A stretch of DNA of 64,000 bases. Origin: an uncultured Gammaproteobacteria bacterium (GTDB lineage: Bacteria > Patescibacteriota > Patescibacteriia > Magasanikbacterales > JBBTQS01). Position 1 is the first letter of the stretch. Every line of letters begins with the position of its first letter. Of the stretch, positions 39,209 to 64,000 are shown in pieces. The stretch lies in contig OZ246400.1 in the NCBI GenBank assembly GCA_965230935.1, positions 438,359 to 502,358 on the forward strand, read 5' to 3'. The position numbers and the translations under genes are program-made. Under the pieces are notes generated by a model. It searched no databases. It was not told where the DNA came from and saw only the letters and a program-made list of their open reading frames with translations.

Positions 39209-39259
39209 ACTCTATACTTATACGAAGAGATGTGATTTAAACCTAATTTACATTACAAC

Positions 39260-39872: not shown

Positions 39873-39897
39873 TATTTATATAATCATACAAGTTTTG

Positions 39898-39983: not shown

Positions 39984-40006
39984 GTGTTTTTTGTTATTCA
40001 ATTGTG

Positions 40007-40097: not shown

Positions 40098-40180
40098 ATT
40101 GATTCTGCAGGAAGGTGGTGCGCTCGCCTCGCGCTTTCAGCGCTTGCTCACGGTCAGCCACCTCTCCATTGATTTCAAAA
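40098..40180 (-). repeat. Direct duplication of the tRNA-Ser(GCT) 5' end plus 9 nt of upstream flank (AATCAATGGAGAGGTGGCTGA), forming a tRNA-like long hairpin in the transcript leader
   Basis: 40085..40106 vs 40155..40176 near-identical; intervening sequence pairs GGAGAGGTGG with CCACCTTCC and has inner GCGC hairpins. Confidence 0.5.
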
Positions 40181-40189
40181 TGCGTGTGT

Positions 40190-40218
40190 AGTGTATGTGA
40201 TTTTATCCTTATTGTCAA
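40190..40218 (-). promoter_or_regulatory. Sigma70-like promoter TTGACA-17-TACACT for the tRNA-Ser cluster
   Basis: rc hexamers at 40218..40213 and 40195..40190. Confidence 0.4.
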
Positions 40219-40221
40219 CAA

Positions 40222-43430: not shown

Positions 43431-43432
43431 AC

Positions 43433-44131: not shown

Positions 44132-44573
44132 CAGGGCGATACACCCCGCCAGTGTTTACCACAAGTGATAAATCGGAAAGTCGACTCTTGCTTGCAGGCT
44201 TTTTTTCTACGATCTGCGCTCGCTGCGCCTGCAACTCTGCTTCGCGCTTTTCTTTTTTTGTTGGCTTTGGTGGTTGTATTGTATCATCTTTACCCTTCAT
44301 CCACACGCGGATTCCCGGCTTACGCATGGTTTGAAAAAAATTCAGGATAAAATAGTGAAACCGCTGACCGCGCACTTTGACAAACGCCAGGACAATGGCA
44401 AAAAAAATCAACGGAATTCCAGTGGTTAAAAACAGTGCAAAGTCAAAGAGTTTAAAAAAAATAAACTCAAACATACCAGCTACCAATAAAATCATAAACT
44501 GGCGGCCGGTGATAGGCCCGATAATCTTTGCTTCCTCATCAATAAATTGTGGAATCACAAATCGATCAGCCAT
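44118..44573 (-). CDS. Small 2-TM hairpin membrane protein, VirB3/PrgI-like by size, topology and position immediately upstream of VirB4
   Basis: FMILLVAGMFEFIFFKLFDFALFLTTGIPLIFFAIVLAFV hydrophobic hairpin; 151 aa. Confidence 0.4.
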   Translation of the reverse strand: MADRFVIPQFIDEEAKIIGPITGRQFMILLVAGMFEFIFFKLFDFALFLTTGIPLIFFAIVLAFVKVRGQRFHYFILNFFQTMRKPGIRVWMKGKDDTIQPPKPTKKEKREAELQAQRAQIVEKKPASKSRLSDLSLVVNTGGVYRPDDQQ

Positions 44574-44574
44574 A

Positions 44575-46284
44575 CTACCAACTCTCTAATACTTGGTTAC
44601 CGGCAATAATTTGAAACAACTCGTCATCATCAAGTACTTGTTTGCGCGCTTTTACCTGCTCTTTAACAAACTCGCCAATGGATTTGCGCTCTTGCAATGC
44701 CTCTACAATCATTTTCTCGTACAACTGATACGGCTCACTGCGACGCCACGCATAAATCGCTTGAATTTTATCAGGATAGGATTCTTCACCAATACGTGCG
44801 ATGGCAGACAGAATTTTTTCCATGCGAATCTCAGGCTGCGGCGAGCTGCGACGAAAATCGACCAACCGCAATTGCTCGATCTCTTGCACCGGTCCGGTGA
44901 GTGCCTGGCCGGCTGGACGCACATCAGTCATAGTCGGCTCTGGAGCTTGCGGTGCTTTTACCGGCACATCAGCTACTGCAGATGGTGGTGCCGTTTTTCC
45001 AGACACTGCGGCAACTTTTGGCGCTTGTAACCCACCGGAGATTGCGGCATTACCCCCCGGAATCTCAAAGTGTGGTGCCGTGCGCAATGTATCCTCATGT
45101 GTAGCACCGATTTCATGTTCGGGATTGAGATCTGGTTTGCGCTGTTCTGATTTCTTTTGCGTTTTCTTAGCTCTTCCTACGACTTTGGTAAATGTTGTAT
45201 CAGCAGTAGCCTGAGCTGCTTCTTTCTTTTTGGGCGCTGCCTCTTTCTTCTTTTGTACTAGAGCATCTGCTGTTTTATACTTGGCCATTGCCTCTTCAAC
45301 AATCTCTACAATTGCCATGGCAAGCTCAGCGCTCAACGCGGCTCCTCCTTGATCAGCGGCGCGCATAAGTGTCTCACTCAGGGCACGCGTATCACGTGCA
45401 CCGCCAACACGAGAGCTGATCACTGATCGAAGTGATTCAGGATCTACATCACGAATCGTATGATTAATCTCTGTGAGTATTTCATCAAGTAATTGAGTGC
45501 GTTGTGGTTGATGTGCTCCGGCGCCTGCTCCAAGCGTTTTGCGCATCGCGCGCTTTGCTTTTTTTACATCATGCGCAATTGCTTTTTCATCCTCTGACTT
45601 GCCCTTACGTCGTCGGCGTACGGTGACATTCGAGACATCAACAAGACCATCGCGCTTTGCCACACGCATACTATTGGTACCAGCAAACGCTTGTTTAATA
45701 GCAAGAGCTGCACTGTGCGCATCATCTTCTGAAAGTTGCAGCTTCTCTTGCAGTGTTTGCATAACCTGCTGTTCATTAAACGACGAGCGGCCTGCTTTGA
45801 CCACTTGTTGCGCTAATTCAATAAACGCGGCCTTGGTTCGTGGATTTTTCACTGATGGCGGGCAAAGCGATGCAATCTGTGCGGTCATCTGTGTATCGGA
45901 AAACGCTGGGATACTAAAATGCTTTCCGGTTGAGTCATACGTTTTGGTTGCTGCCTTTGCATCCCACTTGGCAACCTCTTTGTGTACCGGCCCTAAGTAA
46001 TCCCGTGCCGGGAAAAATAACCGCATACCAATTTCAGCTGCCAGTGGTGTTGTTTGCGCCACTGACTTTCCAAGCGCTTTAGCTAAGGTGCTTGGAAATT
46101 GCTTCAGTGATGTCTTACCCAAAAACACTTCAAGAACCGTGAGCAGCATTGCCCGTTGTTGCTCTGTTTTATCTAGTCCATAATGCGCGAAGAGTGACTC
46201 ATTAACTTGAGTCACTTCTACGCTACGCAAATATGCTTGAACATTTTGCGGGAGCTGCTTAAGTGTAGCAAACACAATCGGCAT
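44575..46284 (-). CDS. Hypothetical 569-aa soluble protein in T4SS-like operon (Ala/Lys-rich, no P-loop)
   Basis: no TM, no Walker motif; sits between VirB6-like and VirB3-like genes. Confidence 0.45.
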   Translation of the reverse strand: MPIVFATLKQLPQNVQAYLRSVEVTQVNESLFAHYGLDKTEQQRAMLLTVLEVFLGKTSLKQFPSTLAKALGKSVAQTTPLAAEIGMRLFFPARDYLGPVHKEVAKWDAKAATKTYDSTGKHFSIPAFSDTQMTAQIASLCPPSVKNPRTKAAFIELAQQVVKAGRSSFNEQQVMQTLQEKLQLSEDDAHSAALAIKQAFAGTNSMRVAKRDGLVDVSNVTVRRRRKGKSEDEKAIAHDVKKAKRAMRKTLGAGAGAHQPQRTQLLDEILTEINHTIRDVDPESLRSVISSRVGGARDTRALSETLMRAADQGGAALSAELAMAIVEIVEEAMAKYKTADALVQKKKEAAPKKKEAAQATADTTFTKVVGRAKKTQKKSEQRKPDLNPEHEIGATHEDTLRTAPHFEIPGGNAAISGGLQAPKVAAVSGKTAPPSAVADVPVKAPQAPEPTMTDVRPAGQALTGPVQEIEQLRLVDFRRSSPQPEIRMEKILSAIARIGEESYPDKIQAIYAWRRSEPYQLYEKMIVEALQERKSIGEFVKEQVKARKQVLDDDELFQIIAGNQVLESW

Positions 46285-46301
46285 ATAGATAGGATGTACG
46301 A

Positions 46302-49206: not shown

Positions 49207-49248
49207 TGTAAAAAAAGAAGAACCCCACAATCGTGATGATCGTGGGGG
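49207..49248 (-). terminator. Terminator for SPFH-like gene: CA-rich tract then CCCCAC...GTGGGG hairpin then U-run (minus strand)
   Basis: rc reads ...CACAACAACGGGGACCCCCACGATCATCACGATTGTGGGGTTCTTCTTTTTTT. Confidence 0.45.
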
Positions 49249-49290: not shown

Positions 49291-50226
49291 CTAGCTCCTC
49301 TTTTTCTTCTTGCGTGAGCCGCCGCCCTTGCCCCGGAACGCCGCCATGAGCTTCATGCGGTTCTCCAGCGAGATGTCGGCCCACTTCTCGTCGGTCATCA
49401 TCTCGGCGAAGGCTTTGAAGTCGGCCATCTTCTCCGGCGTCATGTCCCCCACGTGAGCCGGAGTGGTGGAGCGAGGCTTCGCGGTCTGCTTGTGCTCGGT
49501 CTGCACCGCCACCACGCGAAACCCGCAGGTCTTGGGCAGTGGATCACGGCCGTCCACCACACCCGGATCCGGGTCGCTGGTGTTGCAGCCACTGACCACG
49601 GCGGCCTTGAGCGTGTCGTCCATGGCCTGGAGCTCGTCCAGCGTCGGCTTCTTGTCCAGACCGTCGATGAACCGCTTGAGCTCGAACGCCGCCTTACGCC
49701 AGGCCGCGTCCACGATGGCCGCCTTGCCGTTGTCGCCCTTCTTGACGTCGGCGTGGTTCATCAGGTACTTGGCGCACTGCGCCATGGCCGGACCATCACC
49801 TGTGTTGAGCCGCACGCTGAACTTGATCGCCGCCGTAACGTTGGACCCGTCGTGCGCCACGTACTTGATGTGCGCCAGGCAGGCGAACATCCAGTTGTTG
49901 GGACACACGAAGGTCTGGTGACGCAACATCGCGCCGCCAGGCACGAAGTGCTTGCCCCGACCACCGGTGTTGCTCTGGAACGGCCGCACCAGGTCGCCAT
50001 CGCTGTCCACCGCGATCCCCATCTTGCCCGACGGGATGATGAACTCGGACTTGAAGTAGTAGCTGATCGCCAGGATGATCCCGAAGATCGCAATGCCGTA
50101 CCCGGGGACGTCCGGGCTGATCCAGCCCTTCCAGGCGCCAAGCACTGCTGCGATCGCCGTCACGACGAACGCGGTGAAGTAGCTGCGCCAGTCCCATCCC
50201 TCTTTCTTGCTCAAGATGCTCTGCAT
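49291..50226 (-). CDS. High-GC membrane protein with SPFH/band-7-like core (tentative), 2 N-terminal TM, basic tail
   Basis: IIPSGKMGIAVDSDGDLVRPFQSNTGGRGKHFVPGGAMLRHQ...AAIKFSVRLNTGDGPAMAQ resembles SPFH beta-rich core; GKGGGSRKKKKRS tail; 311 aa. Confidence 0.35.
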   Translation of the reverse strand: MQSILSKKEGWDWRSYFTAFVVTAIAAVLGAWKGWISPDVPGYGIAIFGIILAISYYFKSEFIIPSGKMGIAVDSDGDLVRPFQSNTGGRGKHFVPGGAMLRHQTFVCPNNWMFACLAHIKYVAHDGSNVTAAIKFSVRLNTGDGPAMAQCAKYLMNHADVKKGDNGKAAIVDAAWRKAAFELKRFIDGLDKKPTLDELQAMDDTLKAAVVSGCNTSDPDPGVVDGRDPLPKTCGFRVVAVQTEHKQTAKPRSTTPAHVGDMTPEKMADFKAFAEMMTDEKWADISLENRMKLMAAFRGKGGGSRKKKKRS

Positions 50227-50682
50227 CTTATCCTCCCTCTGTGTGTGGTGTGTAGTGAATCTTCTTCGCCGATCTGCATTGTTTAAAGAGCTGCTTCTGC
50301 AGCAAACAATGAAGTTTGTCGCTTCTGCAACCGTATATCATATCATAATTTGGTGTTTTTGTCAATATTAATTTAGCTAAAATAAGATAAAATCCTAAAA
50401 TAAGTCACAAACTATGCACAGAAAAGCCTTTGTTTGCTGGGTTTTCTATTGACAGAGGGGTACTGTTTTGCTACTGTAAAAGTGACTAAATGTGTCAAAT
50501 AGTTCTTTGTAAAAAGTTGCAAAATCGCACCGGAATGAGGAGTGCAAGCTCATCACTCTAGCGCGATTTTGCAACCAAGAGGGAAAGCCAACCACTTGTA
50601 GTCGTTCTGCTGGAGGTCCCGGGTGGGGCCTGCGACAGGAGTTGCGCCAGGCCACACTCAGACCTATCGGGGGAAAGAAACG

Positions 50683-51531
50683 ATGAAGACCAGGACCCTT
50701 TCGACCATGGCCGTGCTGGCGGCTCTGGTGCTCGCGGGCTGCGCCGCTGAGGCGCCGACCGACGGCAACATGACGCCGGACCAGCAGATCGACCAAAAGA
50801 CGTTCACCGTGGAGGTGGTCGTCGAGCACGCCCAGAATCGTGTGGGCAACGCCGAGGTCACGGCGATGACGCACGGCGCGGTGGCGTACACCGACCACAA
50901 CGGGGTGGCGACGTTCGACAGTCTGCCGGCCGGGCCGGAGACGTTCAAGGTGGACGCGCCGACCATCGAGAAGCCGCTGTACGTGGACGTGAACGTGGGC
51001 GAGGACGACGCGCCGATCACGACCGAGACCGTCACGATCGACCCGGCCGACGCCACCGACACGCCGACGCCGAGTGACGACACCTCGCCCATCGCCGGGC
51101 TGGATCCGGAGCTGGACGAGTACGTCAAGATCGGGTGGGCCACGTGGCTGAGCTTCGACGCCGAAGGCGCGCAAATGGCCGGCGGTGGGCCGAACGACTG
51201 GTACGAGATCGGGTACAACGCCAAGCAGGGCGCGTACAAGATCTACGACCAGGGTCATCCGTTCAGCACCAACTACATCGACACGATCGCCTGCTTCGTG
51301 GAGGTCAAGTCGGACTGCGGTGCTGAGGCGTGCCTGTCGTGCGAGGACCTGATGGTCGGCAACAAGGGGTTCTACTACTCCACCATCGGCACGGTGAGCG
51401 AGAACGGCCACAAGTTCGAGTTTAGCTCAACCAAGACCACGGGAAGTGGGACCGATCCGGTCGGAACAGACGTGTTCACCCTGGAGACCGACCCGGACGG
51501 GAACTACTTCGAGGGCTACGGCGACGAGTAG
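50683..51531 (+). CDS. High-GC secreted lipoprotein A (lipobox LAGC) with N-terminal Thr/Asp/Pro-rich region and 141-aa C-terminal 4-Cys domain shared with lipoprotein B
   Basis: MKTRTLSTMAVLAALVLAGCAAEA; start reassigned to ATG 50683. Confidence 0.5.
   Translation: MKTRTLSTMAVLAALVLAGCAAEAPTDGNMTPDQQIDQKTFTVEVVVEHAQNRVGNAEVTAMTHGAVAYTDHNGVATFDSLPAGPETFKVDAPTIEKPLYVDVNVGEDDAPITTETVTIDPADATDTPTPSDDTSPIAGLDPELDEYVKIGWATWLSFDAEGAQMAGGGPNDWYEIGYNAKQGAYKIYDQGHPFSTNYIDTIACFVEVKSDCGAEACLSCEDLMVGNKGFYYSTIGTVSENGHKFEFSSTKTTGSGTDPVGTDVFTLETDPDGNYFEGYGDE
51101..51525 (+). repeat. Direct repeat copy 1 (425 bp, identical to 51866..52290), encodes shared C-terminal domain
   Basis: read base-by-base against copy 2; identical protein-level ORFs also appear in all overlapping frames of the ORF track. 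Confidence 0.85.
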
Positions 51532-51690: not shown

Positions 51691-52299
51691 ATGCCATACC
51701 GATATGCGATGGGCTTCGTGCTCATGATGCTCTTGAGCACCTGCGCAGACACGACGTCCAATGAGGATGGGCGTCCTCATGGACTGACCTCTGATCCCGG
51801 CCTGTTTACGAACGAAGACGCCCGACCATGGTCACCCAGCCTCACCGGCAATCCGATTGATGGCATGGATCCGGAGCTGGACGAGTACGTCAAGATCGGG
51901 TGGGCCACGTGGCTGAGCTTCGACGCCGAAGGCGCGCAAATGGCCGGCGGTGGGCCGAACGACTGGTACGAGATCGGGTACAACGCCAAGCAGGGCGCGT
52001 ACAAGATCTACGACCAGGGTCATCCGTTCAGCACCAACTACATCGACACGATCGCCTGCTTCGTGGAGGTCAAGTCGGACTGCGGTGCTGAGGCGTGCCT
52101 GTCGTGCGAGGACCTGATGGTCGGCAACAAGGGGTTCTACTACTCCACCATCGGCACGGTGAGCGAGAACGGCCACAAGTTCGAGTTTAGCTCAACCAAG
52201 ACCACGGGAAGTGGGACCGATCCGGTCGGAACAGACGTGTTCACCCTGGAGACCGACCCGGACGGGAACTACTTCGAGGGCTACGGCGACAACCAGTAG
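51691..52299 (+). CDS. High-GC secreted lipoprotein B (LLSTC lipobox-like) with the same 141-aa C-terminal 4-Cys domain
   Basis: MPYRYAMGFVLMMLLSTCADTT; perfect AAGGAGG SD; 202 aa. Confidence 0.5.
   Translation: MPYRYAMGFVLMMLLSTCADTTSNEDGRPHGLTSDPGLFTNEDARPWSPSLTGNPIDGMDPELDEYVKIGWATWLSFDAEGAQMAGGGPNDWYEIGYNAKQGAYKIYDQGHPFSTNYIDTIACFVEVKSDCGAEACLSCEDLMVGNKGFYYSTIGTVSENGHKFEFSSTKTTGSGTDPVGTDVFTLETDPDGNYFEGYGDNQ
51866..52290 (+). repeat. Direct repeat copy 2 (425 bp identical to 51101..51525); downstream about 80 bp also about 90% similar including terminator
   Basis: see copy 1. Confidence 0.85.
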
Positions 52300-52403
52300 T
52301 CCTTGAAGGCCTGGCCTGGTCAACTCCCTCACACAACCCAACACACAACAAGAAAACCCCAGCGAACTGCTGAGGGATTTCTTTTTTGTAAAGAGTTTTA
52401 TGA

Positions 52404-55400
52404 TTACTTTTCTTCTTTGACAATAATCAACCCTTCAAAATGCGCTGATGCATAATTAAAGTTTTTTGGATCTTTACAATCACCCTTATCTGGGTTGGCT
52501 GCAACTTCTTGCCATGCACCTGTTGATCCATTATGGGAAATACCAGACTGATTCCATTCCATATCAGATCCAGCACCCTTGGCATTACACCAATTCCAAT
52601 TATCCATAATCTGCACTCTTGGCCGAAAAGCGCAATACCTGTCTCCCGTCAAAAAGCCATACTTCTCCGGTTCAAATGCAATCGGTGTTTGAGAACCATC
52701 AGGATTCTCAATATAAGGCACATCCCCAGATCCAACCACGTACAATCCATCATTCTGATCATCTACCAAGCCGGTATTAGACGTACCAGCACCTTCTCCA
52801 GCACAATCACCAAATGAGTAATAATGGATAAACTGATAAAATCCATCAGAACATGCATCAGGATGTGCACCAAATTTATCACCCTCATCAGAACAACTTG
52901 GCACACGGTTTTTATATTTACCGGCAAATCGATCTACATCCGCGTATATGATATTACCATTTTCTTCATAGTCACTATTCCACTTCACTGCCATCTCAGT
53001 AATTGGCATTTGGTTATCAGCAACATCAGCATAAAACTCTACACTTGCCACCATGGACGAACCATTGGAAACAATAAAGCCTTTTTCCTGCCCATTCACT
53101 CCCACTGCCTTGTCATCGCCCTTTTGACATCCTGACGCAGTACAAATCACAGCATTCACACGTGGCGGATGAATAGGCGTCTTTGGACCACCTTGTCCTA
53201 TCGCCTCATTGCTAATGCCGTGGTTTAAGAATCCATTTTCATTTGAAACAATCTTTCGTGCCAAAAATGGATCAACAACACTTGATGGATTGGTCTGTAC
53301 ATACTTATTATCCTGCCATGTCCAGACGTTGTATACCCGCGCAAAAATGTTTTGTAGCATTTGTCGTGCATCTGCCTTTTCGATCGTACCTGATTCTGGT
53401 GCATCATCATTTGTAGGACCAAGTTTATCAAGATCAACGCGACCAATATGCACATCTGTATTGGCATCACCTAGTGGGATCCCCATACACACACCGGAGT
53501 CAACAATAAGCATACCGTCCATGGTCTCAAGAGTCTTTGGTGGACACTGCTCTTGTGAGTTACAAAATGCACCATGATGCTCTCCACCAATACACATACT
53601 TGCACGACAACTATCCCGATCTTGCACAAAGGCCATTGTTCTTTTATCCCCATCTACAAACATGGAGTTATCTATATTATGCGTATAGTTATTCTGACAA
53701 GATAATGGAGACCCGGCATTCAAATACTCAAGTCCTGCACCTTGAATCACCTCGGTCGAATCAGTTGCCACATACCATGGTACGGCATACTCGAGTGATG
53801 ATAATGCCGGATGTGGTGTTGTCTGCACGAGTTGCGGCGGACCACTTTCACTTAAATCTTTAATTGGTGGCGAGGTTGCATGTGCTGAACCAAATGGCAA
53901 AAAGTCCTGATCAAAGGAATACGATGGTCCAAATGCACCAACATCCAAAACCGCAGGTGGGCCAAGCCAAAACGTAGAATATGAATTTACTCGATCAGTC
54001 CATGCAAGATTAGTCTTGTTGTCACTATCTGTACTCAGTGGCGCCTCAGGGTCATACACCTGTGCCACCTCAGTACAATACTCACGCAGATAGAAAATTA
54101 CCGCAAAGTTTACATTAGCATCTCCATTACCAGCATCACACATACGGTGCTCAATTGCAGTAAGTTTTCCGGTGTTGGCATCAAACACTACATCCACTAA
54201 CATGCGATGCCAATCAGGATCACCGGTTGGACAGAATCCTTTTCCTACATTGGCATGTGCATTTGGATGCATCTTAGTCTTGAGTATTGTCTCATCCATG
54301 GTAAATACATAATCGTTTTCCCAGAACCAACGCAATCGGATTGTTTTGTCTTCTTCCCAATCCCACTCATCACCGTCTGGGATTAAGTCGGCATCATCCA
54401 CTACCACCATCTGACTCATCCAACGTCCTGGTGCTACAGGACCACTTCCTTCTTCATGTACCCCATTAAATCGCCCATCAGTGAATATTGCCATTGGGGT
54501 GTCAGTTGGTAGATAGTCATGAGAGCTTCCTCCTCTGGCAACACGAGATTCCGGATCGATATAAATCTCTACTCGCTCAACATCTTCAAATCGCAAATTC
54601 GCATCATCCAGAATCCCACTATAATATGTAGGATGATCTTCATCATCAGCATGGACGCGTGAGTAACAATCAGTTCCACAAGCACCAAGATTAAATTTAC
54701 GCGGCAATCCACCTGGCGATCCCCAGCCTAGGTGATTCACCACCATCTTATACGATGCCGAGTTCAAATAAGGTCGATTCCCTGCATTTTTGTATTCCGG
54801 ATTTGAGGTTTTTACATGTGTTTCATAAACAAGCTCTCCCCCGTAGTCATCCTTGGCATCAAAAACAGATCCCGCAACATACGTAAAGTCATTCCAATCC
54901 CGATGCGCCCCTGCACGCCAGGCATTACCACTGGACTCTACACAATAATATTGCCCACCCTGACCTACCGGCAACTGATACCCTGCCTCATCATATTGGT
55001 TAAAGATATCACTACTCCCCGAAAGTAAGGTTGCCGGATACCACGTCTGACACGCATGAGTAAATTGATTGGCATTAACTGATGTCGACAAATCCTCTTC
55101 TAAACAATACCCTTGTGCACCAAATACCTTTTGTGTGCTCTTCAGATACCGACAGGTGCCGTGTTCGCGATCTGAATCATGTTCAAATCCACCCCGATCA
55201 TCAGTACAATCAGACTTGTGATCACATGCTTGGCCATCACGGGATTGCTCATCCGGACTAAATCCACCGCTACAGACCCCAACAGGTAACACGCCGGTCA
55301 AATCGTAATATCGCGGCGCACTATTTTTAGCACCAAATGACGCCTTTTGATAGGCACAGGCATTACACGCTTGCAGATTACCGTTAGCATCGAACTTCTG

Positions 55401-58400
55401 GCAAGTGTTTACATTTTGATGAGAAGTAAACTTTTCAATCGCGTCCCCGGCCTGGGAGTATGACACCACCACCGATGGTGGGAATGGACTATCTTCTTCT
55501 GGATACATGCGACAACTTTGCGCCACCAAATCCTCTGCCTCTGCATTGATTCCAATGACACATCGTCCAGAATAACAATACCCATTTACCGGAAGATTTG
55601 GCTGCCCATCAAGGGGTAAGTTATACGAACAGGCAGTACCATCACTTTGTCCGGCACAACTTCCACTCGCACCAAGATTTGCAGCATTTTTATGACGGAA
55701 TCCCATGGAGACCTCATTCTTCAGTGCATCAACAACCACCGGCTCGAGATCTGCAGCTTGAAACTTATTAAAGATGGAGTACCCACTATAATCAGCTGCT
55801 GCCCATGACGTGTCGCGACCGGTGTAGAGTGCTTTGGTCAAAATTTGATTATAGGTATCATTTTTCTTCTCCACCCATCGAGTACACTCGCCTGATGTTT
55901 GATCACCTTTCCATTCTGCACACACACCAACATTGGTACACACATCTCGTTCTTCTCCTGCACGATTGTCCCACGCTTTAAATGATGACTTACATGAGAG
56001 CCACTCACTACACACACGATCACGGTTAACCTTCAAGATAATGTTACTGTTGTTCACTCCACATTTTGTTCGTGACTTAAACAAGATACGCTCCAACACT
56101 CCCTCAAGCTCATAAAAGTTGTCCGGTAAAGTGTCTTGAGTTGCAGCATCAAGATAATCTCGACAAAGTTGTGCAGTCGCATTGTACGCTTGTAACCCTG
56201 TTACCTGCTCTGCCCCATCAAAGACAGCTTTATACCCTGCTTGTGCTTCACAAAAATCAACAACCCCGGACTTTACACTCTCAGTACACCGAACACCAAA
56301 GGTCACCTCATCTCCAGCTCCTCCAATCAAATCTCCGACTGCGGTTGGAGTAAAGGTTTCTACTGTGGTCACTTTCACCTCAGTTAATTTTTCCCAACAC
56401 GCTTGAAATTTAGGCTCACAGTTACTATCTGCTACCCATACAAAATCATTAATATCGATCGCTCCTGGAGCATATTGTTTCACCTGCGGACACCCACCAG
56501 ACAAATCAAGATATTCTGCACATTCAATCGGTGTTCCATTAAACGTTGCACCCAAATCTGATGATGCAAGTGGTTCGTGCGGTTGTGGGGCTACCGGATT
56601 ACCGTTATTCTGCGCTGATGCGGCATAGGTCATTTGCGTACTCCACTTTTTCGTGAGATTCGCGGTATCATCAAACAGCACACATCCGTCTTCAAGACTC
56701 ACTTGTCCGGCACAACTGGTGGCATCTAATGCTTCATCATTTAAGAAGTAGTATGGCTTACCAAGAGGCATGCTGTCACTGACATCATTACGGTCAACAA
56801 AGGCGGTACAGCCACCATAAATAGACTTACATTCACCTACCGTACCATCATAGAGCGCATCACCATTTTTCCAAATACCAAACACATTGCCCGCTTCAAC
56901 ATACCCGTCATAACACGGCTCCGGCTGACCAGAATCAGTCACTGATTTAAACCATCCATCGCGAGTCGTACCATCTGGCATGACCACTTTTTCTTGATAG
57001 GTACATCGGTTTGGCCCAGGATCTTTAAAGTAGAAAGTTTGTGTTTGGTTTGAATATGAATCACATCCATTTTCAAACACCTTACACATCTGCGTTACAT
57101 ATTGATCTGGCAAATTATTCAAATATATTGTGTCAACACTACCATTTGCCTTAGTTTCACCAAACGCCTGACACCCTTTTTGCTCGGCCACACACGCAAA
57201 CTCAGGATTATTGACTACATAAATTGCTTGATCTTCAGGAACCACAACGTCATCCTCCGGATTACTGGTGTTGGTTTGCGGATCAATACCGTCATTGAAG
57301 ACCTGGGAACTTACCGATGCGGAGTTTTGCGTATTAATAAACGCCTGACATCCCACCACTTCTTCACGACATACCCGATTAAACCCGGTCAAGAACTGTT
57401 GCTCACCAAGTTCAGTGCTATATTGCTGACAACCAAGCGCCACACCAGGTAAGTTATCATTTGGGTTACTATCACATGCTACCGGCGTATTCCAAGAATC
57501 TTTAATCAAATAATGTACGCCATTTGCCTCTTTCACAAACAACTTATCAATAAAGTACGTTGGCTCGCCCCCACCAACAGCATTCAAGAGCATCCGCCCG
57601 GTCACCACCTGAGTATTATCAACGGTGATTGGGCCAACGGTGTACTGTCGCCATACGGCATCAAGACTTGCTGAATGTGCACCACTGCTGCCTGAGATTA
57701 CTTGACCGGCCTTGTCTTCGAGCTCTAGATCGAATGACACACCGCTGGCACCTTTACCCCAGAAGGTAATGGTATAGGCATTTGCATGTTGCAATACAAA
57801 CCGAGGGGACACAATACCGGTTGCTCCGCCTTCTAACGCATGATCTCCCACAGTCACCGCCTCAGTTGAAAGTGATGCATTTTCCCAATCAATAACGCCG
57901 GCACCACCTTCAAAATCAACTTCATAGATAATGTTTCCTGATGCTGATGCTGCACCGGTATATTCTCGACAAAGATTCTCTCCAGCATCACACTTGTGAC
58001 TCATAGATGGAAGTGCTTTGTACAAACATGCACCGTCAAGCGAGACAGTTCCTCCGGTCTCAGTACATACATCCGCTGCAATTGCTTCGTTTCGACGAAG
58101 TGGTGCACATGAATCAGAAACAATAATCAACTGGGAAATAAATCGATAATACGCATCACCTTCACTGCCAAACAATTCACGACAATCCGGATTGTAGTTT
58201 GGATCAGTATCGCGATTTGCATAAATCGTCGCATTACAGGTTGAAGCAAACTCTGCTAACACCGCAGCGTCATCAGTAAGATATTTTGGCGCATCGGCGT
58301 CCAGTACAAAATCAAAGGACTTGAGCTGGAATCCAACGGTATCAGATCCCTCCCAGGTGTAGAACAGATCATGACCATCCGGACCAACATCAGCCGGTTT

Positions 58401-60782
58401 TACACAGTGTTGTAAATCAGTATAGTACTCAACCTTCTCTCCTCCACTCTCTGCTGAGTCTAAATTCGTAAAACTAGTACACCCAACTGACTCTGCAGCG
58501 CAGGCTACAGCAGTCTCAGGAATAAAGTAATCAATCTCCTCAAGCGGATGGAGAGATGATGCGCTTTGGGCAAATTGCGCATACCCAACACACTCCGCAT
58601 CACAGACATTATTTTGTGATGCAATTGCCGGGACGTCAGGATCGCCATTTGCCGGGGTATACATAGAACATCCCACATCAGCTAAGGTACACAATTGTGC
58701 ATAATCCCCACACTCAAATGGATCAGTGAGTGGATCGCCGGTACATCCAAGATAGTCCGGCGGAATACGCAAATAATTAATGTTGTCCCCTAGCCCCTGT
58801 TGTAAGGCAGTACACCCGGCAGCAGCCTCACTACACGTCCCCACATCTTTATTAAAGAAAATTTGCTTGCCGGCAGTATCCCAACTACCAGACTCAACTT
58901 GATCAGTAAAGTACCCGCGACAACCAACATTTGCCTCAGTACAATACTCATTATTGATGGTACTTGCCAAGTACGATACATTGGCACCGGAGCGAGCCGT
59001 TAAATTGGTACATGATTCATAGTATGCCGGACAACTATTTCCTTTGAAATCCCACGCATTTTTCTCTCGCAAACAATATCCCCATGCACCAACGCACTCG
59101 CCATTTTCATTGGTAACCACACAGGTCGGATCATCAACACAGGCTTCTTGTCTAACAGCCCCGCGATCTGATTGCAATACCGGCCCATATACTTTGGCGC
59201 GACATTGCATCAGAGGAGCAATCAACAACCAATCCGGATCAATCAAGTGACAATATGGATGATTATCATCAGCTACTCCGTCCGGGAAACTTGAGTCGTC
59301 ATAATTACAATCATCAAAACCATCGACGACTGTCTGGAGTGAGACTCCAGCGATTGGCGCCTCAAGTGCTGCGATTTCCCACCCAATTGGCAAAATACGT
59401 GCGCGACGAAGTTTTACTAAATTACTATAACAATACGCCTCGGACCAACAAGAGTTCTGGGAATTTTGCGCAGAATTTGGCGGGAGGAGCAGCCAATCGC
59501 CGTGAATCAAATCTTGTTCTATTGCTTGGGCAACCGTCATTGCTGACTGACTCAAATCAGCTCGAATGGCCTGGGCAAATTTTTCATCAATTGTACAGTT
59601 ATTCTGTTGTGGAAATTCGTCAGGACACGCCAAAAACTCAGTTACAATATCAACACTATTTACACTTTTAACTTCAGCCGTATAAATGTCTGCATACGTT
59701 GCTTCAAATGCTTGCTTTCCTGCTGACGGTTGTGAAAACTGATTAAATGCCAAAGATGATGCTGCAGGAGCTGCTGGAACTGGAGTCTGTCCTTTGGTAA
59801 ACCACTGCTCAATCAACTTATCAGCCAATGTACTTAAAAATGTCCCGGCAATTGAGGCAACAATCCCTTCACCACTGGCGACAAATGCATTAAAGGTGTC
59901 ATTCTGACGCTCATTAGCCGCTTTTGGACCGGAGATCGATGCGGTTTCTTCAACTGATGCCGCTGGTGTCACCACTCGTTCGGAAACTTGATCAGTCACT
60001 GGCTTAAATGAATTGCTTGCCCGTCGTGTAAGTTCTGCTTCTTTTTGCGCATTGAGCACATCAAGCTGTGCTTGGAATTGTGTAAAGTTAGAAAGACTCA
60101 AGTCATTGGAAAGCGGATCAAATGCTTTTTTGTACTCTGCCAAAAAGACACTTGGCTCGTTTTCTTCTGCAAAGGTCTCCCAATTATCGATAATGTCACG
60201 AAAATCACATCGTTGTTGTAACTTGGTTTCACTTGGAGTACCAAAACCACTACCACCTCCCCCACCTAAAATATTCCCCACTTCAAAACCACTAAACAGT
60301 GCCGCTGGAATACCATAAAGCAGATACGGCGCATCCGGAGAACATAGACTTAATCGCCGTGTTGAACCATCTGAAAACTCACCCAAAAAACTATCTCCGA
60401 TTGACTCGACCGCTTCACCTGCTGCACCATAGGCAGCATTTTCCAAATACTCACCCCAATCTACTTCAAACGCCAATGGTGTTTGTCCCCACTCACCAGT
60501 AGCAATATAGGTTGCGGTATCAGCAGCCAACTTATTTCCATATTGTGATGCTAAGTTGACCAGTGCAACCGTTCCGGCTTGCAATAAGAATTCAGCAATG
60601 TTTGTGACTACTCGTTCCCAAATATTGTTTCCTACGGTGATTCCCTCAAGCACCGGCGCGGTAACTGCAAATTGCGCATGTGCTGGTTGTGCCGGAACCA
60701 TGCCCATCACGGTGAGTGCAACCGCAAAAACACCAAGCAGTGTTTTCTTTATCCATGACGATTGTGAACGTGGTGTATGCAT
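52404..60782 (-). CDS. Giant (2792 aa) secreted cysteine-rich cell-surface protein (adhesin/pilus-like candidate) of the T4SS-like operon
   Basis: signal peptide MHTPRSQSSWIKKTLLGVFAVALTVMGMVPAQPAHAQ; very high Cys content throughout; single uninterrupted ORF. Confidence 0.55.
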   Translation of the reverse strand: MHTPRSQSSWIKKTLLGVFAVALTVMGMVPAQPAHAQFAVTAPVLEGITVGNNIWERVVTNIAEFLLQAGTVALVNLASQYGNKLAADTATYIATGEWGQTPLAFEVDWGEYLENAAYGAAGEAVESIGDSFLGEFSDGSTRRLSLCSPDAPYLLYGIPAALFSGFEVGNILGGGGGSGFGTPSETKLQQRCDFRDIIDNWETFAEENEPSVFLAEYKKAFDPLSNDLSLSNFTQFQAQLDVLNAQKEAELTRRASNSFKPVTDQVSERVVTPAASVEETASISGPKAANERQNDTFNAFVASGEGIVASIAGTFLSTLADKLIEQWFTKGQTPVPAAPAASSLAFNQFSQPSAGKQAFEATYADIYTAEVKSVNSVDIVTEFLACPDEFPQQNNCTIDEKFAQAIRADLSQSAMTVAQAIEQDLIHGDWLLLPPNSAQNSQNSCWSEAYCYSNLVKLRRARILPIGWEIAALEAPIAGVSLQTVVDGFDDCNYDDSSFPDGVADDNHPYCHLIDPDWLLIAPLMQCRAKVYGPVLQSDRGAVRQEACVDDPTCVVTNENGECVGAWGYCLREKNAWDFKGNSCPAYYESCTNLTARSGANVSYLASTINNEYCTEANVGCRGYFTDQVESGSWDTAGKQIFFNKDVGTCSEAAAGCTALQQGLGDNINYLRIPPDYLGCTGDPLTDPFECGDYAQLCTLADVGCSMYTPANGDPDVPAIASQNNVCDAECVGYAQFAQSASSLHPLEEIDYFIPETAVACAAESVGCTSFTNLDSAESGGEKVEYYTDLQHCVKPADVGPDGHDLFYTWEGSDTVGFQLKSFDFVLDADAPKYLTDDAAVLAEFASTCNATIYANRDTDPNYNPDCRELFGSEGDAYYRFISQLIIVSDSCAPLRRNEAIAADVCTETGGTVSLDGACLYKALPSMSHKCDAGENLCREYTGAASASGNIIYEVDFEGGAGVIDWENASLSTEAVTVGDHALEGGATGIVSPRFVLQHANAYTITFWGKGASGVSFDLELEDKAGQVISGSSGAHSASLDAVWRQYTVGPITVDNTQVVTGRMLLNAVGGGEPTYFIDKLFVKEANGVHYLIKDSWNTPVACDSNPNDNLPGVALGCQQYSTELGEQQFLTGFNRVCREEVVGCQAFINTQNSASVSSQVFNDGIDPQTNTSNPEDDVVVPEDQAIYVVNNPEFACVAEQKGCQAFGETKANGSVDTIYLNNLPDQYVTQMCKVFENGCDSYSNQTQTFYFKDPGPNRCTYQEKVVMPDGTTRDGWFKSVTDSGQPEPCYDGYVEAGNVFGIWKNGDALYDGTVGECKSIYGGCTAFVDRNDVSDSMPLGKPYYFLNDEALDATSCAGQVSLEDGCVLFDDTANLTKKWSTQMTYAASAQNNGNPVAPQPHEPLASSDLGATFNGTPIECAEYLDLSGGCPQVKQYAPGAIDINDFVWVADSNCEPKFQACWEKLTEVKVTTVETFTPTAVGDLIGGAGDEVTFGVRCTESVKSGVVDFCEAQAGYKAVFDGAEQVTGLQAYNATAQLCRDYLDAATQDTLPDNFYELEGVLERILFKSRTKCGVNNSNIILKVNRDRVCSEWLSCKSSFKAWDNRAGEERDVCTNVGVCAEWKGDQTSGECTRWVEKKNDTYNQILTKALYTGRDTSWAAADYSGYSIFNKFQAADLEPVVVDALKNEVSMGFRHKNAANLGASGSCAGQSDGTACSYNLPLDGQPNLPVNGYCYSGRCVIGINAEAEDLVAQSCRMYPEEDSPFPPSVVVSYSQAGDAIEKFTSHQNVNTCQKFDANGNLQACNACAYQKASFGAKNSAPRYYDLTGVLPVGVCSGGFSPDEQSRDGQACDHKSDCTDDRGGFEHDSDREHGTCRYLKSTQKVFGAQGYCLEEDLSTSVNANQFTHACQTWYPATLLSGSSDIFNQYDEAGYQLPVGQGGQYYCVESSGNAWRAGAHRDWNDFTYVAGSVFDAKDDYGGELVYETHVKTSNPEYKNAGNRPYLNSASYKMVVNHLGWGSPGGLPRKFNLGACGTDCYSRVHADDEDHPTYYSGILDDANLRFEDVERVEIYIDPESRVARGGSSHDYLPTDTPMAIFTDGRFNGVHEEGSGPVAPGRWMSQMVVVDDADLIPDGDEWDWEEDKTIRLRWFWENDYVFTMDETILKTKMHPNAHANVGKGFCPTGDPDWHRMLVDVVFDANTGKLTAIEHRMCDAGNGDANVNFAVIFYLREYCTEVAQVYDPEAPLSTDSDNKTNLAWTDRVNSYSTFWLGPPAVLDVGAFGPSYSFDQDFLPFGSAHATSPPIKDLSESGPPQLVQTTPHPALSSLEYAVPWYVATDSTEVIQGAGLEYLNAGSPLSCQNNYTHNIDNSMFVDGDKRTMAFVQDRDSCRASMCIGGEHHGAFCNSQEQCPPKTLETMDGMLIVDSGVCMGIPLGDANTDVHIGRVDLDKLGPTNDDAPESGTIEKADARQMLQNIFARVYNVWTWQDNKYVQTNPSSVVDPFLARKIVSNENGFLNHGISNEAIGQGGPKTPIHPPRVNAVICTASGCQKGDDKAVGVNGQEKGFIVSNGSSMVASVEFYADVADNQMPITEMAVKWNSDYEENGNIIYADVDRFAGKYKNRVPSCSDEGDKFGAHPDACSDGFYQFIHYYSFGDCAGEGAGTSNTGLVDDQNDGLYVVGSGDVPYIENPDGSQTPIAFEPEKYGFLTGDRYCAFRPRVQIMDNWNWCNAKGAGSDMEWNQSGISHNGSTGAWQEVAANPDKGDCKDPKNFNYASAHFEGLIIVKEEK

Positions 60783-60785: not shown

Positions 60786-61523
60786 TTACTGTGACTGGAG
60801 TACTGCTTGTTGAAGCAATTGAAATACCTCTTCATCTGAAAGAGCGGCGACCTCTGCTGGATCCATACCTGATTCAACTAAAATCTTACGAACATCAGCA
60901 ATGGTCTGCGTGCTATCTTGCCCGGCGATCGAACCACTCACCAAACCGCCAGGGCTCGCTGTTGGACTCTCGGCAATCGTCTCGTTGTACAACTCAAGCA
61001 GTTGCGCATCATCAACACTATCTAGAATCTCATCACTGACGCCAGCATCGCGAAGCGCGGCGCGAAGCCCAAGTACATCCACACCAGCAGCACTCTCACT
61101 CACTGATGACTCAGGAGCATACGCATCTGCTTCGGCACTGGGCAAAAACCCGAAACAGGTTTCGCCCTTTGGACAGTTTGGATTTTCTCCGTCAGCAATC
61201 TCTTTGGCATCGCTCTCTCCATCTGAATCTGAGTCCGTAAGATAGGGACTGGTCTTATACAAATTGATCTCATCAAAATCTGATAGCCCATCCTTATCGG
61301 TGTCCTCGGCTTTGAGAATTGCTTCGATCTCATCGGCTTCAAGTCGGGACAAATCAAACTCTGCTGATGATGGCGTAGCTGGTTCTTGCGGGCCATAAAA
61401 AATTCGAGACTTGATTTGAGAAAATCCTAAAAAGAGCGCAGAGATACCAAACAACGCGAGCACCATCGCGCTTATTCTCTCATATCGCGATAACCGCCCA
61501 ATTGCTGAGCGAAATTCTTGCAT
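60786..61523 (-). CDS. TM-anchored acidic protein with thrombospondin-type-3-like Ca-binding repeats (DTDKDGLSDFDE, DSDSDGESD), first gene of operon
   Basis: N-terminal TM ISAMVLALFGISALFLGF; DxDxDG motifs; stop 4 nt before giant gene start. Confidence 0.45.
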   Translation of the reverse strand: MQEFRSAIGRLSRYERISAMVLALFGISALFLGFSQIKSRIFYGPQEPATPSSAEFDLSRLEADEIEAILKAEDTDKDGLSDFDEINLYKTSPYLTDSDSDGESDAKEIADGENPNCPKGETCFGFLPSAEADAYAPESSVSESAAGVDVLGLRAALRDAGVSDEILDSVDDAQLLELYNETIAESPTASPGGLVSGSIAGQDSTQTIADVRKILVESGMDPAEVAALSDEEVFQLLQQAVLQSQ

Positions 61524-61534: not shown

Positions 61535-62347
61535 TTAGTGCGCTAAGTATACCACAATTTTACACCAATCTGCGAGGGAAAGTTCTTGTGGACGAATTGA
61601 GAAGATGAGACCGGCGTTTTCAAATGCCGCTTCAAGTGTTTTTCTGGGGGCAACACCGGCTTTTGCGAGTGTGCTAAGGAGCTGCTTTCGCTTATGTAAA
61701 AATCCAATTTTTGCCAGTTGATGAACCGCAGCAAATTCCTTTTGATCAATAGGATTACATTCAAGCGCAAGTACTTTGGAATCAATTTCCGGCTGTGGCC
61801 AAAACGACTGTGGGGTGCTGGTCAGTACGGCAGTGAGTTTCCCAAGCATTTGCATGGTGATTGCTAACAGATTCATCTGAGGCGGATGGGCAAGCATGCG
61901 GTCGGCCACTTCTTTTTGTACCATGAGTACTGCGCGAGTAGGTCGTGGGCCGCGTTGCAAAAAATGTTCAATCAATGGAGAGGTAATGTTGTATGGGAGA
62001 TTGCCCACCAAGATATATTGATCGGGAATGTGTTTGGCAATATCAAAACGAAGTGCATCTTGATTGTGCAAAACAAAATTCTGGTGCCCTTCTACTGTAT
62101 CGCTAAGGTACTGCGCTAACTTTCGATCTTTCTCAATCGCAATCACCGTGGCGCCACTGGCGATAAGTACACCGGTCAAGGCGCCAAATCCCGGACCAAT
62201 CTCAACCACGGTATCCTTAGCAGAAATCTGTGCAGCATCTACAATCGCCTGCACTACACGATCATCAACTAAAAAATTCTGGCCCATCTTTTTGGTCGGC
62301 CGCACACCATATTGCTCACTTAATGCTTTGACCTCGCTGGACTTCAT
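61535..62347 (-). CDS. rsmA: 16S rRNA (adenine1518/1519-N6)-dimethyltransferase RsmA/KsgA
   Basis: GQNFL, EIGPGFGALT, NLPYNI motifs; 270 aa. Confidence 0.85.
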   Translation of the reverse strand: MKSSEVKALSEQYGVRPTKKMGQNFLVDDRVVQAIVDAAQISAKDTVVEIGPGFGALTGVLIASGATVIAIEKDRKLAQYLSDTVEGHQNFVLHNQDALRFDIAKHIPDQYILVGNLPYNITSPLIEHFLQRGPRPTRAVLMVQKEVADRMLAHPPQMNLLAITMQMLGKLTAVLTSTPQSFWPQPEIDSKVLALECNPIDQKEFAAVHQLAKIGFLHKRKQLLSTLAKAGVAPRKTLEAAFENAGLIFSIRPQELSLADWCKIVVYLAH

Positions 62348-62934
62348 ACCACAACGCTCCCTTGCCGCAGAACATCAATCTTCTTATCTCGCACCCGCAC
62401 AATGGTGGTTGATGGGATCATCTCAAGTTCACCAGCATCAAGGTAGGCAGCAATCGCCACATCAGCAAACTGTCGCTGAACACCATCAATGGTGTAACAA
62501 CTTGGCTTGTTTGAAATGTTAGCGCTGGTGGAGATAATCGGCTTACCAAGTGCAGCGCATAGTGCTTGGGCAATTGGTGATCCAGATACCCGTAGCGCGA
62601 TAGAACCATCATCGGCAATCACATGCGGCGAGATGCCGGTACCTTTTTTGGCCGGCAATACCAATGTCAATGGACCTGGCCAATGTGCATCAATGATCTT
62701 TTGCGCTGACGCGCTGATATTAACAATTTGTTTTGCCATGGCAAGATTAGCGACAATAACCGGCAACGTAACTCCTTCTGATCGTTGTTTTGCGGCAAAA
62801 ACTTTTTGTACTGCTTCGTGATTAAACGCATTTGCTCCAAGACCATACGAGGTCTCGGTTGGATACACCACCAATTCCCCGGCACTCAAGTGCGCCGCAG
62901 CATTGACAATGTCTTGCTGTTGGATATCAGTCAT
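62344..62934 (-). CDS. tsaC: L-threonylcarbamoyladenylate synthase, YrdC/TsaC family
   Basis: VVYPTETSYGLGANAF YrdC signature; 196 aa; 4-nt overlap with rsmA. Confidence 0.75.
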   Translation of the reverse strand: MTDIQQQDIVNAAAHLSAGELVVYPTETSYGLGANAFNHEAVQKVFAAKQRSEGVTLPVIVANLAMAKQIVNISASAQKIIDAHWPGPLTLVLPAKKGTGISPHVIADDGSIALRVSGSPIAQALCAALGKPIISTSANISNKPSCYTIDGVQRQFADVAIAAYLDAGELEMIPSTTIVRVRDKKIDVLRQGSVVV

Positions 62935-62938
62935 AGGA

Positions 62939-64000
62939 TTATAAATTTGTATTTTTGTTTTCTTGTGCGGCTGTCCACTTCAGATAGTGTTCGACAAATT
63001 GATCAAGCTTTCCATCAAGTACCGCTTGTGTATCTGCAGTTTCATACTCTGTGCGGTGATCTTTAACGAGCTGATACGGATGCAGCACATACGAGCGCGC
63101 CTGATTCCCCCATTGGGCACTTTGATATTCGCCACGCAACATTTCTTTTTCTTCTTGAAGTTGTTGTTGTTGCAACTGGTGTAATCGCGAGCGCAAAATC
63201 TTCATTGCGGTTTCTTTATTCTGGGTTTGTGAACGTTCGTTTTGGCAGGTGACGGTAATCCCAGTGGGTTCATGAACAATGCGCACCGCTGAATAGGTAG
63301 TATTTACTGACTGACCACCATGCCCACCACTCATATACGTATCGATGCGTAAATCTTTTGGATCAATCTCTACCGTGGTGTGTTCTGTCAGCTCCGGAAG
63401 AACCTCGACCAATGCAAATGAGGTGTGGCGCATTTTTTCAGCGTCGAATGGAGAGATGCGTACCAGCCGATGCACTCCATGCTCACTTTTTAAATATCCA
63501 TACGCATAGTCCCCATGGACATGCACCACCACACTTTTAATTCCGGCTTCATTGCCCCGAGACTCAGAGATGATTTTCATTTTCCAGTCATGAGCCTCAA
63601 CATACCGACTATACATGCGCAGCAACATCTGCGCCCAATCTTGTGCCTCAGTTCCACCAGCTCCTGCATGAATCGCTACAATAGCATTGCTGCGATCATG
63701 TTCAGCGGAGAGGAGTACTTGAAATTCAAATTTTTCAAAACGCGTGACGATATCATGATACTGCTTTGCAACATCATCTTTGAGGGTATGCACATCGTCT
63801 TCTGAACTTTCGTTGATAAAGGCGATCAACGAGCCGACTTCTTCTTGAAGTGCGCTCCATTGACTTACCTCTTGGCTTAAACCGGCATGTTGTTGAGAGA
63901 CCTCTTGTGCTTCTTGGGCATTATCCCAAAACGTTGGTTCTTGCATTTGCACCTCAAGCGCATGCATATGTGCAGTCTTTTTTTCCACATCAATAATCTG
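62939..64000 (-). CDS. prfB: Peptide chain release factor 2 (partial; N-terminus and presumed programmed +1 frameshift site lie beyond window end)
   Basis: SPF tripeptide motif and GGQ (SGGHGGQSVNTT); reading frame stays open upstream of listed GTG start to position 64000. Confidence 0.8.
   Translation of the reverse strand, partial: QIIDVEKKTAHMHALEVQMQEPTFWDNAQEAQEVSQQHAGLSQEVSQWSALQEEVGSLIAFINESSEDDVHTLKDDVAKQYHDIVTRFEKFEFQVLLSAEHDRSNAIVAIHAGAGGTEAQDWAQMLLRMYSRYVEAHDWKMKIISESRGNEAGIKSVVVHVHGDYAYGYLKSEHGVHRLVRISPFDAEKMRHTSFALVEVLPELTEHTTVEIDPKDLRIDTYMSGGHGGQSVNTTYSAVRIVHEPTGITVTCQNERSQTQNKETAMKILRSRLHQLQQQQLQEEKEMLRGEYQSAQWGNQARSYVLHPYQLVKDHRTEYETADTQAVLDGKLDQFVEHYLKWTAAQENKNTNL

Follow-up and report, generated by a model that had tools for sequence, protein, structure and literature searches.

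The giant gene, its product, and its family

We analyzed a 64,000-nt stretch of contig OZ246400.1 (assembly GCA_965230935.1, positions 438,359 to 502,358; hereafter the window) and in it a very large open reading frame (ORF), here called the giant gene, whose Cys-rich product is predicted to be exported. A preliminary description of the window had pointed to a small-genome host; the 931-kb contig indeed belongs to a Patescibacterium, and homologues of the giant protein come only from metagenome-assembled genomes (MAGs) of Patescibacteria. The giant gene is the last gene of a string on one strand, prfA-tsaC-rsmA-p245-giant, with successive gaps of 4, -4, 11, and 3 nt, so that the p245 stop lies 3 nt before the start codon of the giant gene. 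The features of this string are as follows.

61535..63988, minus strand: rsmA/ksgA, tsaC (Sua5), and prfA, housekeeping genes at the head of the co-directional string
60786..61523, minus strand: p245, encoding 245 residues with an N-terminal transmembrane anchor, two TSP3-type Ca-binding repeats (DTDKDGLSDFDE…DSDSDGESDAKE), a Cys pair, and a helical tail
52404..60782, minus strand: giant gene, ATG start, 2792 codons plus stop, uninterrupted, aligned end to end with its homologues
60675..60782, minus strand: Sec-type signal peptide of the giant protein, residues 1-36 (…KKTLLGVFAVALTVMGMVPAQPAHA/QF, the slash marking the predicted cleavage site)
52357..52375, minus strand: terminator-like hairpin and T-run, 29 nt past the giant gene's stop codon, from a consensus scan only

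The reading frame runs for 8.4 kb without an internal stop, as initially described, and specifies a product of 2792 residues (~300 kDa). The same protein was recovered on two independent contigs. These observations, full-length collinearity with homologues, and the existence of 1378 related clusters (see below) refute in practice the idea that the ORF is a pseudogene, a chimera of the assembly, or open by chance, and nothing was found in its favor; with the frame intact, the pseudogene reading is excluded. We conclude that the giant gene is real, intact, and under long-term constraint, because its relatives are numerous and collinear and share a conserved Cys skeleton.

At the N terminus of the giant protein, a basic n-region is followed by the hydrophobic stretch LLGVFAVALTVMGMV and by AHA/QF. 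This signal peptide, which had been noticed earlier, is the sole hydrophobic segment of the protein; a similar N terminus is present in 31 of 31 homologues, and their alignment consensus at the cleavage position is AxAQ. Cleavage is predicted to occur before Q37.

The protein contains 96 Cys (3.44%, versus 0.88% across the 40 other ORFs of the window). It is thus Cys-rich, as the preliminary description stated, but not along its entire length: the dense zone spans approximately residues 380-1950, with only 2 Cys in residues 1-380, none in 1001-1100, and 1-3 per 100 residues in 1950-2792. The hundreds of disulfides once predicted overstate the count several-fold, since 96 Cys set a ceiling of 48. 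Analysis of Cys periodicity, proposed as a check, revealed 13 CX6C spacings against 3.3 +/- 1.7 in shuffled sequences, and none of 5000 shuffles reached 13. Most of them sit in a short recurring motif, [YF]-x(n)-C-x2-[EA]-x2-G-C-x2-[FY]; self-BLAST of the giant protein found no longer internal repeats. Despite an overall identity of ~30%, 81 of the 96 Cys are kept in at least 80% of homologues. A membrane DsbA-like oxidoreductase, also correctly spotted in the preliminary description, is encoded elsewhere in the window and is the likely oxidant of these cysteines:

27613..28257, plus strand: DsbA-like thioredoxin with an N-terminal transmembrane anchor, a CLAC motif, and Thioredoxin_4/DSBA matches

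Alignment of homologues and structure prediction with AlphaFold2 (AF2), scored by the predicted local distance difference test (pLDDT), divide the mature protein into the following regions, one of which resembles a carbohydrate-binding module (CBM).

59655..60674, minus strand: N-terminal Cys-poor domain, residues 37-376, with 2 invariant Cys, moderately conserved; long helices in the AF2 model, pLDDT <50
57951..59654, minus strand: Cys-rich core 1, residues 377-944, conserved, with the most conserved motifs (YCYSNLVKLRRARILPIGWEIAA and HPYCHLIDPDW) and 8 CX6C hairpin staples
57498..57950, minus strand: CBM4/9/16/22-like beta-sandwich, approximately residues 945-1095, Cys-free, with profile and Foldseek matches
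56583..57497, minus strand: Cys-rich core 2, residues 1096-1400, conserved, with 4 CX6C motifs of the type C-x5-G-C-x2-[FY]
56133..56582, minus strand: variable insertion, residues 1401-1550, with homologue gaps of 48-69% and column identity of 10-14%
54933..56132, minus strand: Cys-rich core 3, residues 1551-1950, conserved, with long beta-hairpins in the AF2 model
53163..54932, minus strand: variable, indel-rich region, residues 1951-2540, mostly 10-26% identity and 36-52% gaps, pLDDT largely <50
52407..53162, minus strand: C-terminal beta-sandwich region, residues 2541-2792, conserved, ending ...F-x-G-x-I-I-V, with no transmembrane segment and no LPXTG

Conservation is thus high over residues ~380-1400 and 1550-1950, low over 1400-1550 and 1950-2540, and rises again over the last 250 residues. 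The AF2 models cover residues 37-1236 (mean pLDDT 60) and 1593-2792 (mean pLDDT 56), with confident islands at residues 376-526, 676-1086, and 2542-2732. Scores within core 1 are 72-89 for residues 376-526 and 70-90 for residues 676-940; the C-terminal island (2542-2732) scores ~85.

Neither Pfam nor NCBIfam matched the giant protein itself. Pfam CBM_4_9 (PF02018) was found in 7 of 15 homologues, as the only Pfam domain there, and the giant's own copy falls below reporting thresholds. A profile of the family searched against all PDB sequences matched only CBM4, CBM16, and CBM22 modules (best, the laminarinase CBM4 1gui, E=1e-5; also 4xup and 2zex). Consistently, a Foldseek search of the PDB with the first half of the protein returned only CBM22, CBM4, and CBM16 structures, with template-modelling (TM) scores on the target of 0.5-0.64 (4xuo, TM 0.63). 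The second half gave nothing below E=0.08, core 1 matched no fold or family, no adhesin fold was matched significantly by Foldseek, and matches of the models to viral structures were dismissed as meaningless. A C-terminal stretch, VDWGDG...HxY, was considered as PKD-like and rejected, having no Pfam support at E<=0.1. Judging from profile and model, residues ~945-1095 form a CBM4/9/22-like beta-sandwich of a predicted glycan-binding type. The fold is that of the CBM4, CBM9, CBM16, and CBM22 modules of glycoside hydrolases, but here it lies inside a giant scaffold with no detected catalytic domain. Most homologues carry a second CBM-like insert, which is absent from the giant and its closest relatives. 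Repeat detection and structure prediction by segments, as advised at the outset, thus produced one domain and nothing else that could be recognized.

The PDB matches bear on a further explanation of the protein, namely that the cell secretes it as an enzyme or toxin against the host envelope, for instance a glycan hydrolase targeted by its CBM. CBM4/9/22 modules in known enzymes are usually appended to glycoside hydrolases, and in the most conserved block of the giant (residues 445-530), R, E, H, D, and W at invariant or near-invariant positions could make up an active site. We regard this explanation as very improbable all the same: Pfam, NCBIfam, the PDB profile search, and Foldseek detected no catalytic domain in the giant; its sequence has no HExxH motif and a lone G-x-S-x-G match, at chance level; and its size and Cys scaffold argue for a structural role.

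A word-indexed search yielded 31 homologues of 2573-3681 residues and 27-42% identity, all from metagenome assemblies of Patescibacteria, or the Candidate Phyla Radiation (CPR). The closest cover 95-100% of the giant, P0002 doing so with 42% identity and 100% coverage. An exhaustive HMMER scan of 1.84 billion cluster representatives (clustered at 50% identity) with residues 380-1400 found 1378 clusters at E<=1e-3, of which 1145 reached E<=1e-30; among the matches listed, lengths were mostly 2500-3900 residues. A profile built from 15 sequences added no new family members, and a search with a short conserved block of the giant returned fragments only. When one genome of each GTDB species was scanned with a pattern, relatives turned up in at least 542 species. 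Named records are mostly Candidatus Magasanikbacteria, along with Veblenbacteria, 'Parcubacteria group', and 'Patescibacteria group'; Uhrbacteria, Falkowbacteria, and Colwellbacteria are among the protein-search matches. The giant shows the hallmarks of the family, i.e., full-length collinearity, the Cys skeleton, and the motifs CHL[IV]DP[ND]W and R[IV][IL]P[ILV]GWE[IL]A. It belongs to a large, well-populated, unannotated, and new family whose general kind is familiar, namely giant surface proteins secreted by epibionts; what is unusual is the rigid pattern of conservation together with a specific genomic tie to type IV secretion system (T4SS) genes. The family is not described in a survey of Patescibacteria T4SS (PMC12102498), a T4SS nomenclature review, a PNAS perspective, the Southlakia transposon-sequencing paper, a giant-gene preprint, or the Patescibacterium danicum paper.

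Linkage of the giant gene to T4SS genes

Beyond the giant gene, the window continues with a pair of genes on the opposite strand and with a T4SS locus of the monoderm type.

51691..52299 and 50623..51531, plus strand: two lipoprotein paralogues, on the opposite strand between the giant and the T4SS genes
50365..50337, minus strand: promoter-like site, the best of the region (11/12 plus extended TG), upstream of the T4SS genes
49291..50226, minus strand: transmembrane protein of 311 residues, tail poly-Lys, flanked by the promoter-like site above and the hairpin below
49247..49223, minus strand: strong terminator-like hairpin, following the gene for the 311-residue protein
41541..49154, minus strand: monoderm-type T4SS genes (VirB6/TrbL-like, a 569-residue protein, PrgI/VirB3, TrsD-like, VirB4)
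46302..49154, minus strand: VirB6/TrbL-like T4SS gene, extended
44118..44573, minus strand: PrgI/VirB3 T4SS gene
43433..44131, minus strand: TrsD-like T4SS gene
41541..43430, minus strand: VirB4 T4SS gene

The preliminary description had placed the giant gene between a Ca-binding anchor protein and a VirB6-like gene, and both neighbors are there (p245, with its TSP3 repeats and transmembrane anchor, upstream; 46302..49154 downstream). It had also embedded the gene in the T4SS-like operon, which does not hold: the giant gene ends the prfA-tsaC-rsmA-p245-giant string and has a terminator-like hairpin of its own. As judged from the sequence, it adjoins the T4SS operon of the window and appears to lie outside it, because that hairpin, the opposite-strand lipoprotein genes, and a separate promoter-like site intervene.

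Relatives of the giant gene were compared at 85 loci. Directly upstream is a p245 homologue in all 79 loci (79 of 79) whose sequence reaches that far, and rsmA is upstream in 64 of 71. The comparison with related genomes that had been suggested supports proximity to T4SS genes: iterated profiles placed a VirB6 homologue within 10 kb downstream of the giant gene in 33 of 44 loci, and wherever the DNA reaches, PrgI, TrsD-like, and VirB4 genes come after VirB6. At one locus (L087), rpsL-rpsG-fusA replaces rsmA in the upstream flank, and p245-giant-...-TrbL/VirB6-...-PrgI-TrsD-VirB4 are still together and co-directional. In the most divergent member (L086), the genes from the giant through the T4SS are co-directional and contiguous, with no opposite-strand gene between them. 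These two loci argue that the linkage is more than a frozen gene order, the block surviving a changed flank in the first and being co-directional in the second. We conclude that linkage of the giant gene to T4SS genes is frequent and independent of the flank.

These data bear on whether the giant might be a general envelope protein, S-layer-like or wall-organizing, with no specific link to a T4SS or a host, its neighborhood being merely the frozen gene order of streamlined genomes. Such a protein could well be co-transcribed with prfA-tsaC-rsmA, as the giant gene appears to be, and groES/groEL are syntenic with it, as is prfA. The family is widespread with a single gene at each locus examined, 11 of the 44 loci lack T4SS genes nearby, and the Ca-binding partner and the CBM modules could bind the cell's own wall polymer. 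We nevertheless consider a general envelope protein unlikely. The giant stays with T4SS genes at L087 under a different housekeeping flank, and its distal region, being variable, suggests that it makes diversifying contact with something outside the cell. Unlike the giant, S-layer proteins usually contain little Cys. Nor does Pfam find an SLH or CWB2-type wall-anchoring domain, by which monoderm S-layer proteins are held, in the giant or in 15 homologues.

The same block of genes can be read in another way, with the giant and p245 as an extracellular part of the T4SS itself and no separate adhesin involved. Together they would form a conduit across the wall, a cap, or a sheath, and take the place of the pilus or outer-membrane core complex, which monoderm systems lack. 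The co-directional p245-giant-...-VirB6-...-PrgI-TrsD-VirB4 order in divergent genomes, even where the flank has changed, is what this explanation expects, and the near-invariant Cys skeleton and single copy number amount to a machine-like conservation. VirB8 or an adhesin goes unrecognized in most Patescibacteria T4SS loci (PMC12102498). The Saccharibacterium Southlakia epibionticum, whose T4SS locus is essential for epibiotic growth (Wang et al. 2023, PMC10633639), is also instructive. Its locus, orthologous to that of the window, resembles it in VirB6, PrgI, TrsD-like, and VirB4 genes and in ending with comF and tRNA-Ser, but it encodes six VirB2-like pilins in an array, along with a lysozyme-like and a PEGA protein, and no giant, the largest gene product being 1113 residues. 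On the other side, the giant is unlike any T4SS component in Pfam, NCBIfam, or the PDB, it is predicted to be Sec-exported and is transcribed separately in the window, and ~25% of loci have no T4SS genes nearby. A T4SS_pilin-domain protein is encoded elsewhere in the window, so the choice is not strictly between pilin and giant. Overall, an integral T4SS component seems improbable to us.

An equally doubtful, more specific proposal is that p245 and the giant form the extracellular arm of the chromosomal, relaxase-less T4SS of ABY1-type Patescibacteria. The arm would be Ca-dependent, rigidified by disulfides, and wall-spanning; it would dock on wall glycans of the host through the CBM modules and position or gate the VirB6/VirB4 channel, through which macromolecules would be taken up or delivered. 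If true, the arm would represent T4SS accessory structures of a new class, without homologue in the systems described so far.

Within the T4SS locus, VirD4 was not found, and the genes past VirB4 are, in order, that of a 227-residue transmembrane protein, comF, and two tRNA-Ser genes. The comF-like gene and the two tRNA-Ser genes, together with radA and recG (33611..40845), flank the T4SS genes; comF, recG, radA, and ksgA around the T4SS correspond to the context given for class ABY1 in PMC12102498. The VirB6/TrbL-like protein has its transmembrane core in the first ~430 residues, followed by a hydrophilic tail of ~500 residues with long Gly/Ala-rich and Pro/Lys/Glu-rich low-complexity stretches. 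No homologue of the 311-residue transmembrane protein was found in the other loci.

The two lipoprotein genes share a 429-bp 3' segment that is 99.8% identical (51098..51525 versus 51862..52290). This tandem duplicate points to recent duplication or to an assembly repeat, in a region with a G+C content of 57.5% against ~46%. A 321-residue ORF at 50446..51411 (minus strand) was rejected as a gene, being almost certainly an Arg-rich shadow of the plus-strand lipoprotein gene. An opposite-strand ORF directly follows the giant gene in 43 loci (L021, L022, L024, L034, L042, L043, L054, and L060 among them). Those inspected are lipoprotein-like (signal peptide plus Cys lipobox), and the largest BLAST cluster has 9 members. 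The position of this predicted lipoprotein gene is conserved, and its sequence appears to evolve fast. Some contigs with this Patescibacteria-specific locus (L054 and many others) carry the titles 'uncultured Gammaproteobacteria bacterium' or 'Candidatus Udaeobacter sp.', which are probably placeholders or reflect mis-binned MAGs.

A candidate host-contact structure

Taken together, the data lead us to favor, tentatively, the reading of the giant as a structure for host contact that is tethered to the surface, binds glycans, and acts together with the T4SS. The protein, non-repetitive and multidomain, would leave the cell by Sec. Outside the membrane, probably by action of the DsbA-like enzyme, ~40 conserved disulfides would form, including 13 local CX6C staples, and would staple the conserved N-terminal two-thirds of the ~300-kDa protein. 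The giant has no anchor of its own (neither an LPXTG sortase motif nor a C-terminal hydrophobic segment is present) and is translated directly after the transmembrane-anchored p245; because of this, p245 is the candidate tether to the cell surface, possibly in a Ca-dependent manner. The CBM module or modules would then grip cell-wall glycans of the host, or of the cell's own wall, and the variable distal region would be presented to the partner cell. A conserved base with a variable distal region is as expected of a host-facing surface structure. The giant would thus serve as the contact structure of ABY1-type Patescibacteria at the site where the monoderm-type T4SS acts.

The giant would not itself be a T4SS substrate, because Sec export in a monoderm needs no T4SS. 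It differs from T4SS-translocated effectors in its conserved Sec-type signal peptide, and no VirD4 accompanies it. Nor does it resemble T4SS pilins (VirB2 or PF18895 T4SS_pilin) or VirB5 tip proteins: it is 2792 residues long, its sole hydrophobic segment is the signal peptide, and Pfam detected no pilin domain in the giant or in 15 homologues. The pilus-like fibre suggested in the preliminary description is not supported: the giant shows neither a pilin domain nor repeats, lacks a sortase motif, and matches no fold other than the CBM. The surface adhesin proposed along with it is plausible; a non-repetitive protein, conserved over its full length and with a near-invariant Cys skeleton, is unlike typical fast-evolving adhesins. 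As a whole, that description had the substance largely right but erred on several particulars, and its interpretation is plausible but unproven.

The nearest functional counterparts of the giant would be the Sec-exported adhesins of Gram-positive conjugation systems, to which it shows no homology. PrgB, the aggregation substance of pCF10, and its relatives are likewise Sec-exported, large, and surface-located, have a proposed role in cell-cell contact, and are encoded beside VirB3/VirB4/VirB6-type genes of a monoderm T4SS. In contrast, the giant has no sequence or fold similarity to them, no adhesin or Ig-like domains, and no LPXTG, with a separate transmembrane, Ca-binding partner instead. 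It is twice as large, disulfide-rich, and chromosomal, and is conserved across a whole class rather than plasmid-borne. Its gene is adjacent to the T4SS genes as a separate unit in the window, and contiguous and co-directional with them in L086 and L087.

Large exported proteins have been reported before in these bacteria. Peribacteria (CPR) encode large, Cys-rich extracellular proteins (~7% Cys) in a variable cluster of 14 genes, with integrin/FG-GAP annotations and variation between strains (Anantharaman et al. 2016, PMC4736985). Compared by description only, they share with the giant the CPR host, a signal peptide, a length above 1000 residues, elevated Cys, a proposed role in attachment, and the presence of a disulfide-forming enzyme, whereas the giant is single-copy, conserved over its full length, and 3.4% Cys. 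Patescibacterium danicum (class ABY1) has giant exoproteins of >5000 residues with FhaB/FN3 domains and a proposed role in host adhesion (PMC11809585). These are exported giants of the same bacterial class, but they have no full-length homologues and look rapidly reshuffled, in contrast to a family that is collinear over ~2800 residues in >1000 clusters and has no FhaB domain.

Several observations weigh against a host-contact structure. In the window, the hairpin, the opposite-strand genes, and the promoter-like site put the giant and the T4SS genes in different transcription units. Across loci, no T4SS gene lies within 10 kb in 11 of 44, nor on the P0030 contig, and prfA, tsaC, and groES/groEL are also syntenic, so that neighborhood alone is weak evidence. 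It is atypical of an adhesin to be conserved over its full length, to lack repeats, and to be co-transcribed with translation genes. AF2 yielded only moderate models (mean pLDDT 56-60), 90% of the giant has no fold or family match, and the host-contact role is predicted from sequence and genomic context.

Patescibacteria, which live on other cells, account for a large part of bacterial diversity, and a T4SS proved essential for this lifestyle in the one lineage tested. The dedicated survey detected no adhesins such as PrgB; it noted KsgA near virB4 and did not mention the giant gene (PMC12102498). Published T4SS maps show a gray 'no homology' gene beside ksgA, and this gene proves to be conserved in its own right. 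The family to which it belongs is deeply conserved, unannotated, and tied to the T4SS by gene linkage across hundreds of species, which makes it a candidate for the host-touching part of the machinery. It also offers targets, namely antibodies, landmarks for cryo-electron tomography, a recombinant CBM for glycan arrays, and a marker gene for ABY1-type loci.

Other genes of the window

The DsbA-like gene overlaps the start of a gene for a 556-residue protein with T4SS_pilin and Amidase_2 domains. Next comes an 895-residue protein (29851..32538, plus strand) with 27 Cys (3.0%), a signal peptide, central transmembrane segments, and a weak NlpC/P60 match. It was considered as a homologue of the giant and rejected, the sequences not being homologous. 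The stretch 27613..32538 (plus strand) may be a second T4SS-related cluster, involved in wall remodelling.

At 38044..39208 (minus strand), ORFs of 216 and 186 residues overlap, and the match of the latter to the MFS_1 model is confined to the model's first half. The pair may represent an MFS transporter gene that is frameshifted or split; intact MFS genes of 383-393 residues lie near rsmA in L005 and L088.

Two tandem Na+/Ca2+ exchanger paralogues are encoded at 5141..7120 (minus strand), of possible relevance to a cell surface dependent on Ca-binding TSP3 proteins.

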